Source: a virus
Taxonomy: Duplodnaviria; Heunggongvirae; Uroviricota; Caudoviricetes
DNA: 7,158 nucleotides
IMG/VR virus record: IMGVR_UViG_2541047701_000004
Strand: one strand, 5' to 3'
The notes below the pieces were generated by a model. The model saw only the letters and a program-made list of their open reading frames with translations. It was not told the DNA's origin and did no database searches. A program made the position numbers and the translations under genes. Position 1 is the first letter of the stretch. Every line of letters starts with the position of its first letter. This document shows, piece after piece, positions 415-7,158 of this stretch.

Positions 415-996
415 TTACTTGTTTTTGCCATGCTTATCCTGAGCGATAAGTTCATCCATAAGGCTGTCTGCCTTCCCGGCAAACCTAATGTAGCACTCAT
501 GTCTATAGCTTTCAGGGATAACGAAACGGTCGGTATCAGGATATCCAACAGCAGGAGGCCTTCGAACGAGGAGTCCTTTTTTGAGCAATGAAATTGATTC
601 CTGAGCGCCCTTTTCCGTTTGTAGCTGGTTATTAGCGGCTACAGCGAATGCCAAATACGCTCTTTCTCCAAGAGTTAACGAATCAAACAAATCTTGCACA
701 TATTTTTCTTCTTTAGATTTGCGCTTCTGAGCAGCGAATACCTCAATTCTTTCAGTCACAGCGTGATAAGCGGAATTAACAACGCCGTTAAGCACATAGC
801 TAACGCAAAACAACAGGATGTAATACATCCAGTAATGAGGAAGGATTTCTGGATTATGCAGGTTTATCCATTCTTTTACGCTTACCGGCATAACAATAAT
901 CAATATGATCAGGATGATTAGCATATGAATCAACTGTTTAAGTGTCATTCCTTGCAGGAAAAAATGCATTAGTTCCTGCCACCATGAGTTGTTCAT
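415..996 (-). CDS. sieB: Superinfection exclusion protein B (SieB-like), membrane protein
   Basis: A 193-aa ORF on the strand opposite to ral, with a hydrophobic N-terminal region (LIHMLIILIILIIVMPV, YWMYYILLFCVSYVL). Its size, its position between the ral side and the expected N side, and its divergent orientation match lambda sieB. The sequence matches my recollection of lambda SieB. Confidence 0.8.
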   Translation of the reverse strand: MNNSWWQELMHFFLQGMTLKQLIHMLIILIILIIVMPVSVKEWINLHNPEILPHYWMYYILLFCVSYVLNGVVNSAYHAVTERIEVFAAQKRKSKEEKYVQDLFDSLTLGERAYLAFAVAANNQLQTEKGAQESISLLKKGLLVRRPPAVGYPDTDRFVIPESYRHECYIRFAGKADSLMDELIAQDKHGKNK

Positions 997-2033: not shown

Positions 2034-2198
2034 ATGCAATATGCCATTGCAGGGTGGCCTGTTGCTGGCTGCCCTTCCGAATCTTTACTTGAACGAATCA
2101 CCCGTAAATTACGTGACGGATGGAAACGCCTTATCGACATACTTAATCAGCCAGGAGTCCCAAAAAATGGATCAAACAATTATGGCTATCCAGACTAA
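2034..2198 (+). CDS. cIII: CIII (FtsH inhibitor that stabilises CII)
   Basis: Absent from the ORF track because it is under 60 aa. ATG at 2034 follows a strong SD TAAGGAG (2021-2027). The 54-aa translation is [54 protein letters not shown], matching lambda CIII. The stop TAA is at 2196-2198, overlapping the kil start. Confidence 0.9.
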   Translation: MQYAIAGWPVAGCPSESLLERITRKLRDGWKRLIDILNQPGVPKNGSNNYGYPD

Positions 2199-2310
2199 AT
2201 TCACTATCGCCACTTTTATTGGCGATGAAAAGATGTTTCGTGAGGCCGTCGACGCTTATAAAAAATGGATATTAATACTGAAACTGAGATCAAGCAAAAG
2301 CATTCACTAA
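2167..2310 (+). CDS. kil: Kil (host cell-division/FtsZ inhibitor)
   Basis: The 47-aa product [47 protein letters not shown] matches lambda Kil. The track's 89-aa ORF (2041..2310) is only the in-frame upstream extension; the true start is inferred as ATG 2167 by homology and by overlap with cIII. Confidence 0.85.
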
Positions 2311-2687: not shown

Positions 2688-3473
2688 ATGAGTACAGCAC
2701 TCGCAACGCTGGCAGGGAAGCTGGCTGAACGTGTCGGCATGGATTCTGTCGACCCACAGGAACTGATCACCACTCTTCGCCAGACGGCATTTAAAGGTGA
2801 TGCCAGCGATGCGCAGTTCATCGCATTGTTGATCGTCGCCAACCAGTACGGCCTTAATCCGTGGACGAAAGAAATTTACGCCTTCCCTGATAAGCAGAAC
2901 GGCATTGTTCCGGTGGTGGGCGTTGATGGCTGGTCCCGCATCATCAATGAAAACCAGCAGTTTGATGGTATGGACTTTGAGCAGGACAATGAATCATGTA
3001 CATGCCGGATTTACCGCAAAGACCGCAATCATCCGATCTGCGTTACCGAGTGGATGGATGAATGCCGCCGCGAACCATTCAAAACCCGCGAAGGCAGAGA
3101 AATCACGGGGCCGTGGCAGTCGCATCCCAAACGGATGTTACGGCATAAAGCCATGATTCAGTGTGCCCGTCTGGCCTTCGGATTTGCTGGTATCTATGAC
3201 AAGGATGAAGCCGAGCGCATTGTCGAAAATACCGCATACACTGCAGAACGTCAGCCGGAACGCGACATCACTCCGGTTAACGATGAAACCATGCAGGAGA
3301 TTAACACTCTGCTGATTGCCCTGGACAAAACATGGGATGACGACTTATTGCCGCTCTGTTCCCAGATATTTCGCCGCGACATTCGCGCATCGTCAGAACT
3401 GACACAGGCCGAAGCAGTGAAAGCTCTTGGATTCCTGAAACAGAAAGCCACTGAGCAGAAGGTGGCAGCATGA
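2688..3473 (+). CDS. bet: Bet (Red beta single-strand annealing protein)
   Basis: The 261-aa ORF is essentially lambda Red beta ([38 protein letters not shown]...). Its stop overlaps the exo start as ATGA. Confidence 0.95.
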
Positions 3474-4150
3474 CACCGGACATTATCCTGCAGCGTACCG
3501 GGATCGACGTGAGAGCTGTCGAACAGGGGGATGATGCATGGCACAAATTACGGCTCGGCGTCATCACCGCTTCAGAAGTTCACAACGTGATAGCAAAGCC
3601 CCGCTCAGGAAAGAAGTGGCCTGACATGAAAATGTCCTACTTCCACACCCTGCTGGCTGAGGTTTGCACCGGTGTGGCTCCGGAAGTTAATGCTAAGGCG
3701 CTGGCGTGGGGAAAACAGTACGAGAACGACGCCAGAACCCTGTTTGAATTCACTTCCGGCGTGAATGTTACTGAATCCCCGATCATCTATCGCGACGAAA
3801 GTATGCGCACCGCCTGCTCTCCCGATGGTTTATGCAGTGACGGCAATGGCCTTGAGCTGAAATGCCCGTTTACCTCCCGGGATTTCATGAAGTTCCGGCT
3901 CGGTGGTTTCGAGGCCATAAAGTCGGCTTACATGGCCCAGGTGCAGTACAGCATGTGGGTGACACGAAAAGATGCCTGGTACTTTGCCAACTATGACCCA
4001 CGAATGAAGCGTGAAGGCCTGCATTATGTCGTGGTTGAGCGGGATGAAAAGTACATGGCGAGTTTTGACGAGATGGTGCCGGAGTTCATCGAAAAAATGG
4101 ACGAAGCACTGGCTGAAATTGGTTTTGTATTTGGAGAGCAATGGCGATGA
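3470..4150 (+). CDS. exo: Exo (Red alpha 5'-3' dsDNA exonuclease)
   Basis: The 226-aa ORF is essentially lambda exonuclease ([40 protein letters not shown]...). It is translationally coupled to bet upstream and to orf60a downstream. Confidence 0.95.
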
Positions 4151-4329
4151 CCCATCCTCACGATAATATCCGGGTAGGCGCGATCACTTTCGTCTACTCC
4201 GTTACAAAGCGAGGCTGGGTATTTCACGGTCTTTCTGTTATCCGAAATCCGCTGAAAGCCCAGCGGCTGGCTGAGGAGATAAATAATAAACGGGGGGCGG
4301 TATGCACAAAGCATCTCCTGTTGAGTTAA
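4147..4329 (+). CDS. Orf60a-like protein of the lambda exo-xis region
   Basis: ATG at 4147 overlaps the exo stop as ATGA, giving a 60-aa product ([29 protein letters not shown]...). Its position and length match lambda orf60a. The track's 62-aa ORF starts two codons earlier. Confidence 0.8.
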
Positions 4330-4493
4330 GAACGAGTATTGATTTGGCACATAGCCTTGCTCAAATTGGAGTCAGGTTTGTGCCAATACCAGCAGAAACA
4401 GACGAAGAATTTCATACGTTAGCCACATCCCTTTCACAAAAGCTGGAAATGATGGTGGCGAAAGCAGAAGCAGATGAGAGAGACCAGGTATGA
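4302..4493 (+). CDS. Orf63-like protein of the lambda exo-xis region
   Basis: A 63-aa ORF overlapping orf60a by 28 nt, the same geometry I recall for lambda. The product is acidic and helical ([26 protein letters not shown]...). Confidence 0.8.
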   Translation: MHKASPVELRTSIDLAHSLAQIGVRFVPIPAETDEEFHTLATSLSQKLEMMVAKAEADERDQV

Positions 4494-4573
4494 CAACCAC
4501 TGAATGCATTTTTCTGGCAGCGGGCTTCATATTCTGTGTGCTTATGCTTGCCGACATGGGGCTTGTTCAGTGA
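4490..4573 (+). CDS. Candidate 27-aa hydrophobic peptide (MTTTECIFLAAGFIFCVLMLADMGLVQ)
   Basis: ATG at 4490 overlaps the orf63 stop as ATGA, a classic coupling arrangement. The product is a single predicted transmembrane helix. No homolog is recalled, so this is speculative. Confidence 0.25.
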   Translation: MTTTECIFLAAGFIFCVLMLADMGLVQ

Positions 4574-4686
4574 CACCTCAGCAAGAAAACGCCCTTCGCA
4601 GCATTGCCCGTCAGGCTAATTCTGAAATCAAAAAAGTCAGACAGCAGTTTCCAAAAACGTCAATGACATTTGCCGTAGCGTACTGA
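4504..4686 (+). CDS. Hypothetical protein, possibly orf61-like (Cys/His-rich N-terminus)
   Basis: A 60-aa ORF in the position where lambda carries orf61. An upstream in-frame ATG at 4474 is cut off by TGA at 4501-4503. The assignment and start are uncertain. Confidence 0.3.
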   Translation: MHFSGSGLHILCAYACRHGACSVTPQQENALRSIARQANSEIKKVRQQFPKTSMTFAVAY

Positions 4687-4803
4687 AGAAGCACCGCGAA
4701 ACGGTAACGCTGAAGGGATTCACACCGACTCATTTAAGCCTGGCAATCGGCATGTTAAACGGCGTCTTTAAGGAACGATGAACATGAAAAGCAAAATTAT
4801 CAG

Positions 4804-4824
4804 GGAGCTACAGGCTCCTTTTTT
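4804..4824 (+). terminator. Candidate rho-independent terminator
   Basis: GGAGC (4804-4808), loop TACAG, GCTCC (4814-4818), followed by TTTTTT (4819-4824) then ATT. Confidence 0.45.
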
Positions 4825-4879
4825 ATTGTTCGCATTCACCCTCAAGCGTATTAACCAACAGTTCAGGGATTAATGAAAG

Positions 4880-5101
4880 ATGGCAGACATCATTGATTCA
4901 GCATCAGAAATAGAAGAATTACAGCGCAACACAGCAATAAAAATGCGCCGCCTGAACTACCTGGCTGTATCTGCCACTCATTGTTGTGAGTGTGGCGATC
5001 CGATAGATGAACGAAGACGCCTGGCCGTTCAGGGTTGTCGGACTTGCGCCAGTTGCCAGCAAGATCTGGAGCTTATCCGCAAACAAAGGGGGATTAAGTG
5101 A
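4880..5101 (+). CDS. DksA/TraR-family C4 zinc-finger protein (lambda Orf73-like RNA polymerase-binding regulator)
   Basis: The 73-aa ORF has a Cys-x2-Cys-x17-Cys-x2-Cys motif (CCEC...CASC) that matches the DksA/TraR zinc ribbon. Its size and its position in the exo-xis region match lambda orf73. Confidence 0.85.
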   Translation: MADIIDSASEIEELQRNTAIKMRRLNYLAVSATHCCECGDPIDERRRLAVQGCRTCASCQQDLELIRKQRGIK

Positions 5102-5427
5102 TGGCTAACCTGCAACTTGCTGTTAAAAGTGAATACTTCGATGCCATGATTCGCGGAGAGAAAACGGAAGAGTATCGCTTGTGTAATGACTACTGGAATA
5201 AGCGAATTATGTTCCGGGAATATGACCGCCTGATTATCACAAAGGGATATCCGAAGCGCGACGATTCCAGTCGCAGAATTGATGTTCCGTATGACGGATA
5301 TGAAGTGAAGACAATCACACATCCGCACTTTGGCGATAAACCGGTAAAGGTGTTCGCTATAAAGGTGAATATCAGCACTGAATATCAATCCGCACAACAC
5401 AAGGTCAAGAATGTTCAGAGTGATTGA
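5101..5427 (+). CDS. ASCH/PUA-like domain protein (DUF3850-like), function unknown
   Basis: The N-terminal segment AVKSEYFDAMIRGEKTEEYRLCNDYW resembles the ASCH-type signature (kPEYFeai.sGkKTfEiRkND) as I recall it. The likely start is ATG 5101, overlapping the orf73 stop as TGATG; the track begins at GTG 5098. There is no counterpart in lambda as I recall it. Confidence 0.7.
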   Translation: MANLQLAVKSEYFDAMIRGEKTEEYRLCNDYWNKRIMFREYDRLIITKGYPKRDDSSRRIDVPYDGYEVKTITHPHFGDKPVKVFAIKVNISTEYQSAQHKVKNVQSD

Positions 5428-5650
5428 CCCTAACACCTGGTACGTCGACCACCACGGCACTCCCTGCAAAATCCTGCGTTCTACCCACAACAAAGTTCAC
5501 TACATCCGAAAAGGCAGAACATGTATCGCCAGCATGTTCCGCTTTAATCATGACTTTGAACCTGTGAATAAAGCTGATGCAGATCGGATAGCAGAAGAGA
5601 TCGAAACGGCAGAACACATTAAGAAGTTACGTGACATGCGCAGGAAATAG
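5411..5650 (+). CDS. Hypothetical 79-aa protein (His/Cys-containing N-terminal half, basic helical C-terminus)
   Basis: ATG at 5411 lies 6 nt after AAGG (5401-5404) and overlaps the preceding gene by 17 nt, on the same strand as its neighbours. It occupies the position of ea8.5 in lambda but I do not recognise it as Ea8.5. Confidence 0.6.
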   Translation: MFRVIDPNTWYVDHHGTPCKILRSTHNKVHYIRKGRTCIASMFRFNHDFEPVNKADADRIAEEIETAEHIKKLRDMRRK

Positions 5651-5789: not shown

Positions 5790-6026
5790 ATGTCTCGACT
5801 AATCACTTTACAGGACTGGGCTAAAGAAGAATTTGGGGACTTAGCACCAAGTGAGCGAGTTCTGAAAAAATACGCGCAAGGGAAAATGATGGCCCCACCC
5901 GCTATAAAAGTTGGTCGCTACTGGATGATTGACCGAAATTCCCGTTTTGTAGGAACGCTTGCAGAACCGCAACTCCCAATAAACGCAAACCCAAAACTCC
6001 AAAGGATAATCGCTGATGGCTGCTAG
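5790..6026 (+). CDS. xis: Excisionase (lambda Xis-like winged-helix protein)
   Basis: Strong SD AAGAGGAGG (5777-5785). The 78-aa product begins MSRLITLQDWAKEE...PPAIKVGRYWMI, parallel to lambda Xis MYLTLQEWNARQ...PPPVKDGREYLF. It overlaps int by 11 nt. Confidence 0.85.
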   Translation: MSRLITLQDWAKEEFGDLAPSERVLKKYAQGKMMAPPAIKVGRYWMIDRNSRFVGTLAEPQLPINANPKLQRIIADGC

Positions 6027-7158
6027 ACCCCGATCTCACAAAATCTCTATACCCAATTTATATTGCAAATTAGATAAGCGAACCGGAAAGGTATATTGGC
6101 AATACAAACATCCACTATCCGGTCGTTTTCATAGCTTAGGAACTGATGAGAATGAAGCAAAACAAGTTGCTACTGAAGCAAATACCATTATTGCTGAACA
6201 ACGTACCAGACAAATATTAAGCGTCAATGAGCGTCTGGAAAGAATGAAAGGCAGGCGCTCAGACATTACGGTGACAGAATGGCTTGATAAATATATTTCT
6301 ATCCAAGAGGACAGGCTGCAACATAATGAACTAAGACCCAACTCCTATCGGCAAAAAGGCAAACCCATTCGTCTTTTCCGTGAGCATTGTGGAATGCAAC
6401 ACCTCAAGGATATTACCGCACTTGATATTGCCGAAATAATTGATGCTGTAAAGGCTGAAGGTCATAACAGGATGGCGCAAGTCGTGAGAATGGTGTTGAT
6501 CGACGTCTTCAAAGAAGCACAACACGCAGGACATGTTCCGCCAGGATTTAACCCAGCGCAGGCAACAAAACAACCGCGAAATCGAGTAAACCGCCAAAGA
6601 TTGTCACTGCCCGAATGGCAGGCAATATTTGACAGCGTAAGCAGACGGCAGCCCTATTTAAAATGCGGCATGCTACTTGCTCTTGTTACTGGACAACGTT
6701 TAGGCGATATCTGCAATTTGAAATTCTCTGATATATGGGACGACATGTTGCACATTACTCAGGAAAAAACCGGTTCAAAACTTGCTATTCCGCTTAACCT
6801 GAAATGCGATGCTCTGAATATTACCCTTCGTGAAGTTATATCTCAGTGCAGGGATGCTGTTGTTAGTAAATATCTGGTCCATTACCGTCACACTACCTCT
6901 CAAGCAAACAGAGGAGACCAGGTTTCTGCGAATACTCTGACAACGGCTTTTAAAAAGGCCCGGGAAAAATGTGGCATAAAATGGGAGCAAGGAACTGCGC
7001 CCACATTTCATGAGCAGCGATCTCTGTCAGAACGGTTATATCGGGAACAGGGTCTGGATACGCAAAAGTTGTTAGGCCATAAATCCAGAAAAATGACCGA
7101 CCGATACAATGATGATCGTGGTAAAGACTGGATTATCGTAGATATCAAAACAGCATAG
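6016..7158 (+). CDS. int: Tyrosine integrase (lambda Int family)
   Basis: A 380-aa ORF with the conserved lambda-Int C-terminal signature ...TFHEQRSLSERLY...LLGHKSRKMTDRYNDDRGKDW (compare lambda ...TFHELRSLSARLY...LLGHKSDTMASQYRDDRGREW). The stop codon is the last three bases of the window. Confidence 0.95.
   Translation: MAARPRSHKISIPNLYCKLDKRTGKVYWQYKHPLSGRFHSLGTDENEAKQVATEANTIIAEQRTRQILSVNERLERMKGRRSDITVTEWLDKYISIQEDRLQHNELRPNSYRQKGKPIRLFREHCGMQHLKDITALDIAEIIDAVKAEGHNRMAQVVRMVLIDVFKEAQHAGHVPPGFNPAQATKQPRNRVNRQRLSLPEWQAIFDSVSRRQPYLKCGMLLALVTGQRLGDICNLKFSDIWDDMLHITQEKTGSKLAIPLNLKCDALNITLREVISQCRDAVVSKYLVHYRHTTSQANRGDQVSANTLTTAFKKAREKCGIKWEQGTAPTFHEQRSLSERLYREQGLDTQKLLGHKSRKMTDRYNDDRGKDWIIVDIKTA

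Follow-up and report, generated by a model that had tools for sequence, protein, structure and literature searches.

Proteins of the ASCH superfamily (PF04266; Iyer, Burroughs and Aravind 2006) carry a GxKxxExR motif and include small stand-alone proteins. YqfB hydrolyses N4-acetylcytidine via K21, T24, R26 and E74, and YqfB-type enzymes are rich in acidic residues (PMC9599836). EOLA1 and the TRIP4-like ASCH clade share a K21/E24/R26 pocket triad, Ser or Thr at position 7 is stated to be universal in this clade, and EOLA1 was reported in a 2026 preprint to deacetylate free N4-acetylcytidine (bioRxiv 10.64898/2026.08.01.741249). A part of the same preprint cites a separate study in which murine EOLA1 was inactive, and the activity is disputed. 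Phages often carry DUF3850 (PF12961), a minimal ASCH-like family whose representative structure, 3iuw, is that of an Enterococcus faecalis protein. To our knowledge, DUF3850 has no known function. Within the PUA clan, ZmASCH is a single-strand ribonuclease and other domains read modified bases; in the EVE and YTH domains, recognition rests on aromatic cages. Here we analysed a 7,158-nucleotide stretch of tailed-phage DNA (Caudoviricetes; IMG/VR record IMGVR_UViG_2541047701_000004; hereafter the window), in which a gene at positions 5101-5427 of the plus strand (the target) encodes a protein of 108 amino acids (aa) that very probably adopts the ASCH fold. The target begins on the last base of orf73, which encodes a homolog of the transcription regulator TraR. 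As an early gene it is optional, mobile and independent of TraR.

To compare the target with its relatives we used an alignment of 54 family sequences with 38-95% identity (A2), which served as the input for AlphaFold2 and for the analysis of conservation. The features at and around the target are as follows.

4880-5101, plus strand: orf73, a TraR/DksA C4 zinc-finger protein of the lambda Orf73 type, 73 aa (Pfam, PHROG)
5029-5493, minus strand: antisense open reading frame (ORF) of 154 aa spanning the whole target, judged non-coding
5086-5093, plus strand: Shine-Dalgarno-like AAGGGGGA within the 3' end of orf73 and 8 nt upstream of the target ATG (read from the sequence)
5101-5427, plus strand: target gene, a predicted minimal ASCH-fold protein of 108 aa, PHROG 625
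5155-5178, plus strand: codons 19-26, G-E-K-T-E-E-Y-R, the ASCH octapeptide GxKxxExR (G19, K21, E24, R26)
5320-5331, plus strand: codons 74-77, H-P-H-F, in the loop between strands 5 and 6 (residues 73-81; A2 conservation and AlphaFold2 secondary structure)
5383-5385, plus strand: TAT (Tyr95) in place of the TAA stop of 94-aa relatives (DNA alignment with locus L023)
5411-5650, plus strand: DUF4222 gene, 79 aa, downstream of the target (Pfam PF13973, expectation value (E) 3.6e-19)

The target is a genuine gene under purifying selection. Its reading frame runs from the ATG at 5101 to the TGA at 5425-5427 (an alternative GTG at 5098 would give 109 aa), and base 5101 is common to this ATG (5101-5103) and the TGA of orf73 (5099-5101). 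The protein matches PHROG 625, a family of unknown function, with E 2e-51, and the median ratio of non-synonymous to synonymous substitution rates (dN/dS) across 59 sequence variants was 0.10, indicating strong purifying selection. In the frame of the antisense ORF dN/dS was 0.89, and this frame is interrupted in 20 of 74 variants. The dN/dS values rule out both a spurious target ORF and the antisense ORF as the real gene. A promoter or RNA element within the target was likewise rejected, as Rfam contained no RNA element matching inside the gene and only one weak promoter-like site was found there, on the minus strand. The encoded protein is basic, with an isoelectric point (pI) of 9.0 compared with a family median of 9.3.

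The length of 108 aa is specific to a lineage. Most relatives have 91-96 aa, the close loci fall into length classes of 94, 108 and 110 aa, and the conserved core comprises ~90 residues. The change from TAA to TAT at 5383-5385 is a stop loss, and residues 95-108 are therefore a read-through tail of 14 residues, which overlaps the DUF4222 gene by 17 nt. Confidence of the AlphaFold2 model is low over this tail (low per-residue confidence (pLDDT) at residues 100-108).

Structure prediction and fold searches place the target among PUA-like domains. The AlphaFold2 model has a pLDDT of 87 (>90 over most of the core) and a predicted template modelling score (pTM) of 0.77. The top PDB match in Foldseek was 3iuw (probability 0.95). 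All of the top 14 matches in a second fold search were PUA-like, EVE and YTH domains were interleaved among its matches, and ZmASCH (5guq/5gus) turned up in both searches. BFVD matches beyond the target's own family include phage proteins annotated as 'DUF3850', 'ASCH' and 'Activating signal cointegrator', with probabilities of ~0.8-0.99. Across the 54 sequences of A2, K21 is invariant and G19, E24 and R26 are each at least 90% conserved; W32, R35, G49-Y50-P51, G66, H74 and F77 are nearly invariant, and of these H74 and F77 are candidate pocket residues. We therefore consider the ASCH fold of the target, as modelled, highly probable, and the ASCH label is one of fold and motif, without significant sequence scores. 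The preliminary description, made from this DNA alone, had proposed a 108-aa ORF at 5101-5427 overlapping the stop of a TraR homolog and encoding a stand-alone ASCH/PUA-like protein; the overlap is present and amounts to one base, and the predicted structure, the fold searches, the GxKxxExR motif and the RefSeq name all agree with the proposed protein class.

Compared with the ASCH superfamily at large, the target shares the octapeptide and the small stand-alone form but is shorter (core ~90 aa), and no helical insert precedes its last strand. Judged from the model, it appears to be a stripped-down ASCH domain, perhaps nearest to the DUF3850/3iuw type in size and shape. Sub-threshold Pfam matches at E ≤ 0.01 were to ASCH for 5 of the 54 family members (best E 0.003) and to DUF3850 for only 2 of 54, with protein P0236 also matching DUF3850; these DUF3850 matches are weak. 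In the comparison with DUF3850, sequence identity is ~16-23%. The precomputed Pfam column was blank for all close homologs. K21, E24 and R26 stand at the same positions as in the TRIP4-like clade (EOLA1/TRIP4), whereas position 7 is Ala in the target and Ala, Pro or Asn across A2. Lys21 and Arg26 of YqfB (PDB 9kyf, 1te7) are also present; however, the nucleophile Thr24 of YqfB is Glu24 in the target family, the helix that bears Glu74 has no counterpart (the target family has His at its own position 74) and YqfB is acidic whereas the target family is basic. Because of the Thr24 to Glu change, the absence of the Glu74 helix, the basic character and the lack of a profile match, the target does not qualify as a YqfB-type enzyme. 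The modified-base readers EVE and YTH, in turn, have lower scores than the ASCH matches and do not have the GxKxxExR motif.

The upstream gene, orf73, encodes a bona fide TraR/DksA-type zinc-finger protein of the same class as lambda Orf73. It matches Pfam PF01258 (zf-dskA_traR) with E 6.7e-9 and 36 bits (cut-off 24.9) and PHROG 54, 'DksA-like zinc-finger protein', and scores 55.1 bits against TIGR02419, under the cut-off of 59.7. Lambda Orf73 binds RNA polymerase and reprograms host transcription (PMC9239242). The preliminary description had taken the pair as a two-part TraR-ASCH unit, but the pair is not conserved among relatives. Phages 1H12, which belongs to the genus of Escherichia phage ev207 (Jouyvirus), and 4A7 carry the same orf73 with DUF4222 immediately after it. 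The target is missing there by a clean indel of ~280 bp that reaches from the orf73 end to the DUF4222 start; ev207, with the gene, and 1H12, without it, thus form a natural plus/minus pair of phages. Only 4 of the 292 phage records matching the 1-kb region have the full orf73-ASCH-DUF4222 arrangement. We further examined 81 close loci in IMG/VR (at least 88% protein identity; sequence available up to ~4 kb upstream) and found orf73 directly upstream of the target in 24, orf73 at a distance of 1-2.5 kb in 6 and no detectable orf73 homolog in this upstream sequence in 51. In Stx2 II, the gene after orf73 is ea22, and the ASCH gene, preceded by a DUF551 gene, comes 2.4 kb further downstream. No TraR/orf73 homolog was found in the 3-kb flanks on either side in phiV10, a virulent Jerseyvirus or Ralstonia phage RSA1. 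A set of diverse loci from 39 genomes of alpha-, beta- and gammaproteobacteria, collected with an alignment (A4) narrower than A2, together with those of four phages, gave no Pfam match to zf-dskA_traR among 43 upstream and 43 downstream neighbours, and a phmmer search of all their flanking ORFs found one clear orf73 homolog (Stx2 II, 2.4 kb upstream) and one weak match. The co-occurrence check put forward in the preliminary description, where lack of conservation of the pair was to count as refutation, thus found TraR upstream in 24 of 81 close loci and in 0 of 43 diverse ones. The link to TraR is an accident of lambdoid mosaic gene order, and it is therefore no guide for experiments on Orf73 of the lambda type.

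The target instead behaves as a cassette. More than 20 different genes precede it among the 81 close loci, many of them DUF551/Eaa-like, and for most upstream genes other than TraR the product ends in '...QEVNRG' and the overlap with the ASCH start is 8 nt. Since overlap of this kind occurs with unrelated upstream genes, tight overlap is a property of the cassette junction and not of a TraR partnership. In most close loci lacking TraR upstream (L026-L081) a ...(P)QEVNRG junction lies near locus position 4001, with the ASCH start apparently a GTG within CGTGGCTAA. The QEVNRG junction looks like a conserved site of recombination and translational coupling that carries the ribosome-binding site of the cassette. 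Neighbours of the ASCH gene in E. coli include TraR, DUF551, eaa, DUF4752 and a dATP/dGTP pyrophosphohydrolase, the last (MazG-like) being upstream in some E. coli prophages (H97, H98). Among the diverse neighbours the commonest Pfam families are DUF551 (3), PemK (3) and HNH (2). In the upstream set (phage loci L083-L086 and genome loci L087-L128), PemK/MazF-like toxins make up 3 of the 43 neighbours (best E 5.7e-11) and HNH proteins 2; the PemK cases may be three near-identical Pseudomonas loci (L117, L119, L120), with a gap of 358 nt before the ASCH gene.

In its surroundings the target resembles the accessory genes of the lambda exo-xis region (orf60a, orf63, orf61, orf73, ea22, ea8.5, orf55), which occupy the same operon and include those at the same position between orf73 and xis. 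Like the target, these genes are small, early, dispensable, mosaic and mostly of unknown function; the target has no homology to ea22, ea8.5 or orf55. A part of the exo-xis modelling review PMC8614690 gives ea22 as the gene directly after orf73 in lambda, and the outline and section 5 of this review do not feature the target.

The family is widespread. A database of 90%-identity clusters contains 654 homologs at E ≤ 1e-3, and 750 homologs represent 50%-identity clusters. Alpha-, beta- and gammaproteobacteria all have homologs. The gene is present in 1599 of 5426 complete E. coli genomes (~29%). Phage records with the family number 333, among them those of virulent Jerseyvirus, of the P2-like Ralstonia phage RSA1 and of a jumbo Klebsiella phage. 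RefSeq/PGAP names the exact target protein 'ASCH domain-containing protein', and the records of some relatives carry the name 'RNA-binding protein'. Little changes for the locus as such; the gene, the PHROG 625 family and the ASCH label are already in public annotation. What is gained are mostly corrections, namely that the TraR link is accidental, that the 108-aa form derives from a ~94-aa protein by stop loss and that the ASCH label is a matter of fold and motif. The family is one among many abundant phage early genes, with what the model suggests is a recognisable nucleobase-binding fold. We found no experimental work on this phage family in the literature, in keeping with the preliminary description, which had called its function in phages not established. 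In a transposon sequencing (Tn-seq) study of Dickeya dadantii 3937 (PMC13566846), a prophage 'ASCH domain-containing protein', Dda3937_01763, was listed as essential and was suggested to prevent virion production; the target family is present in the related genus Brenneria (L090, L095).

Taken together, we favour, at somewhat better than an even chance, a dispensable early gene whose product binds a nucleobase, a nucleotide or a single strand in the ASCH cleft, possibly with catalysis, and acts independently of TraR. The target would be an accessory gene of the pL operon at the position of ea22 in lambda. The K21-E24-R26 octapeptide together with W32, R35, Y50, H74 and F77 would form the usual ASCH cleft, and the ligand of this cleft may be a nucleobase or nucleotide, possibly a modified one, which is either free or flipped out of a single RNA or DNA strand. 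The protein would bind its ligand and perhaps hydrolyse a substituent. As a self-contained cassette it would have been placed by recombination behind many upstream genes, and the one-base overlap with the TraR homolog would reflect operon packing and translational coupling rather than a two-protein machine. Our confidence comes mostly from the fold and the independence from TraR and much less from the ligand; ligand, catalysis and benefit to the phage we infer. Several results weigh against this explanation. Pfam ASCH (PF04266) scored only 14.3 bits on the target against a gathering score of 21.2 (E 0.067, residues 6-28 only), and a search of the target against NCBIfam gave no match. Nothing relevant was found in the PDB by phmmer or by hmmsearch with the 54-sequence profile, a match to ribosomal protein L15 (E 0.11) being noise. 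Alignment of A2 by hhalign with YqfB and with a 15-sequence YqfB alignment, a shallow one in which all listed matches were at least 83% identical, reached a probability of 0.5% (E ~0.1) over 16-18 columns; the one aligned stretch puts G19/K21/E24/R26 in register with G19/K21/T24/R26 of YqfB, with a score that is not significant. No informative Pfam fusion occurred in 20 longer homologs (170-478 aa), many of which may have mis-called starts, and no recurrent partner was found by Pfam among the 43 upstream and 43 downstream diverse neighbours, leaving no pointer to a ligand or pathway. TraR is, moreover, directly upstream in ~30% of the close loci and ~40% of the sampled E. coli records, and a functional TraR-ASCH link may exist in this lineage.

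As a general account, however, a two-part early regulatory or anti-defence unit, in which translational coupling would fix the proportion of TraR and ASCH proteins acting jointly on RNA polymerase or its transcripts, is very unlikely and is largely refuted by its lack of conservation. Such a unit would fit the base common to stop and start, the absence of a promoter-like site between the two genes, the 24 close IMG/VR loci with TraR directly upstream and the 568 E. coli records with at least 99% identity, the sampled ones of which have TraR adjoining; the abundance of the phage-21-type prophage explains why this arrangement is frequent in E. coli. It is contradicted by 1H12 and 4A7, where orf73 and DUF4222 occur without the ASCH gene, by the 4 of 292 records with the full arrangement, by Stx2 II with its genes 2.4 kb apart, by the 51 of 81 close loci without detectable orf73, by the complete absence of the TraR family among the upstream and downstream neighbours of the diverse loci and by the 8-nt overlap with unrelated genes. 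Lambda Orf73, moreover, is active alone, both in vitro and in vivo (PMC9239242). The pocket residues bring to mind a small amidohydrolase of the YqfB/EOLA1 type, which would remove the acyl group from N4-acetylcytidine or a similar N-acylated base, either in nucleoside salvage or to erase a modification during infection. We regard this as unlikely, given that the Thr24 of YqfB is Glu, the helical insert with Glu74 is missing, position 7 is not Ser/Thr, the family is basic compared with the acid-rich YqfB-type enzymes and the match to the YqfB-clade profile is not significant; the activity of EOLA1 is itself disputed, with the murine protein described as inactive in the part of the preprint referred to above.

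A single-strand-specific ribonuclease like ZmASCH, or an RNA-binding factor, acting on host or phage transcripts in early infection would agree with the recovery of ZmASCH in both fold searches, with the basic protein and with the relatives named 'RNA-binding protein', and the Tn-seq paper (PMC13566846) calls the essential Dickeya prophage ASCH gene, a possible relative, an 'endoribonuclease'; we rate this reading as improbable, slightly more so than the amidohydrolase. A role in conflict appears to us equally improbable: the product would counter defences that use a modified nucleotide or base as signal or mark, or would serve the prophage as an exclusion factor reading modified DNA of invaders. 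Accessory genes with such roles (sieB, a ral-like gene, gam) lie in the same operon, the target is patchy, mobile, optional and also present in virulent phages, and PUA/ASCH-clan domains sense modified nucleotides in defence systems according to the literature. Yet neither the target nor orf73 or DUF4222 matched a PADLOC model at E ≤ 0.1, no conserved link to a defence, modification or nuclease gene was seen, and the case is purely contextual, without literature support. More specifically, and with very little probability in our estimation, a phage-borne conflict factor would capture or deacylate a modified nucleotide or base via the K21/E24/R26 pocket; it might, for example, blunt defences triggered by modified nucleotides (PUA-domain sensors of m6-dAMP) or act as eraser or reader of an RNA or DNA mark. 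If true, this would explain why a gene so small and optional is dispersed over the early regions of proteobacterial phages, both temperate and virulent.

The window is the leftward early (pL) arm of a lambdoid prophage of the phage-21/ev207 type. From position 402 to its end it is 99.8% identical to ev207, and the 1-kb stretch around the target is 100% identical to ev207 and 97% to phage 21. The target sits in the exo-xis segment, with orf73 on one side and the genes that come before xis on the other. The remaining features of this arm are given below.

415-996, minus strand: sieB
1210-1410: ral-like ORF
1593-1961: DUF2528 gene
2021-2198: cIII with the Rfam thermoregulator
within 2041-2310: kil
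2386-2682: gam
2688-3473: bet
3470-4150: exo
4141-4329: orf60a (DUF1317)
4302-4493: orf63 (DUF1382)
4504-4686: orf61
4802-4830, plus strand: terminator-like hairpin (4802-4820; AGGGAGCTACAGGCTCCTT) with a T-run, in the 190-nt gap between orf61 and orf73 (consensus scan)
5790-6026: xis
6016 to window end: int

The hairpin at 4802-4830 is likely to be one of the pL-operon terminators that are read through under N antitermination. A consensus scan of the plus strand from the hairpin to the xis/int overlap found no sigma-70-like promoter, the nearest plus-strand site being at 6035, and judging by this layout the target probably shares a transcript with orf73, DUF4222, xis and int. With a terminator-like hairpin between orf61 and orf73, expression of the genes from orf73 to int would depend on antiterminated pL transcription, by analogy with lambda.

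Positions 1-401 of the window are the right end of an IS100kyp element of the IS21 insertion sequence family (C-terminus of istB, ORF 43-336). Its junction with the prophage is near 402, just past the 3' end of sieB, where ev207 has gene N, and the same junction was found in 1 of 5426 complete E. coli genomes (MS15236, NZ_CP082094.1). As IS100kyp separates pL and N from the remaining pL operon, expression of the target and its neighbours is probably impaired in this host. The lambda cIII thermoregulator was found at 2021-2079 (Rfam, 88.5 bits), and cIII is therefore the 54-aa ORF at 2034-2198. The 'Kil' coding sequence of the ev207 RefSeq record, 89 aa (window 2041-2310), overlaps cIII in a different frame and looks over-extended; the true kil is probably its C-terminal part of ~47 aa, starting MDQTIMAIQ. 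A weak, sub-threshold Pfam match to ZapA (E 0.0025) was seen for orf61, and the orf61 homolog in Stx2 II (locus L001, 4912-5034) carries the RefSeq name 'cell division protein ZapA'. The RefSeq record of ev207 omits the coding-strand orf61 and annotates a small hypothetical coding sequence on the opposite strand instead.

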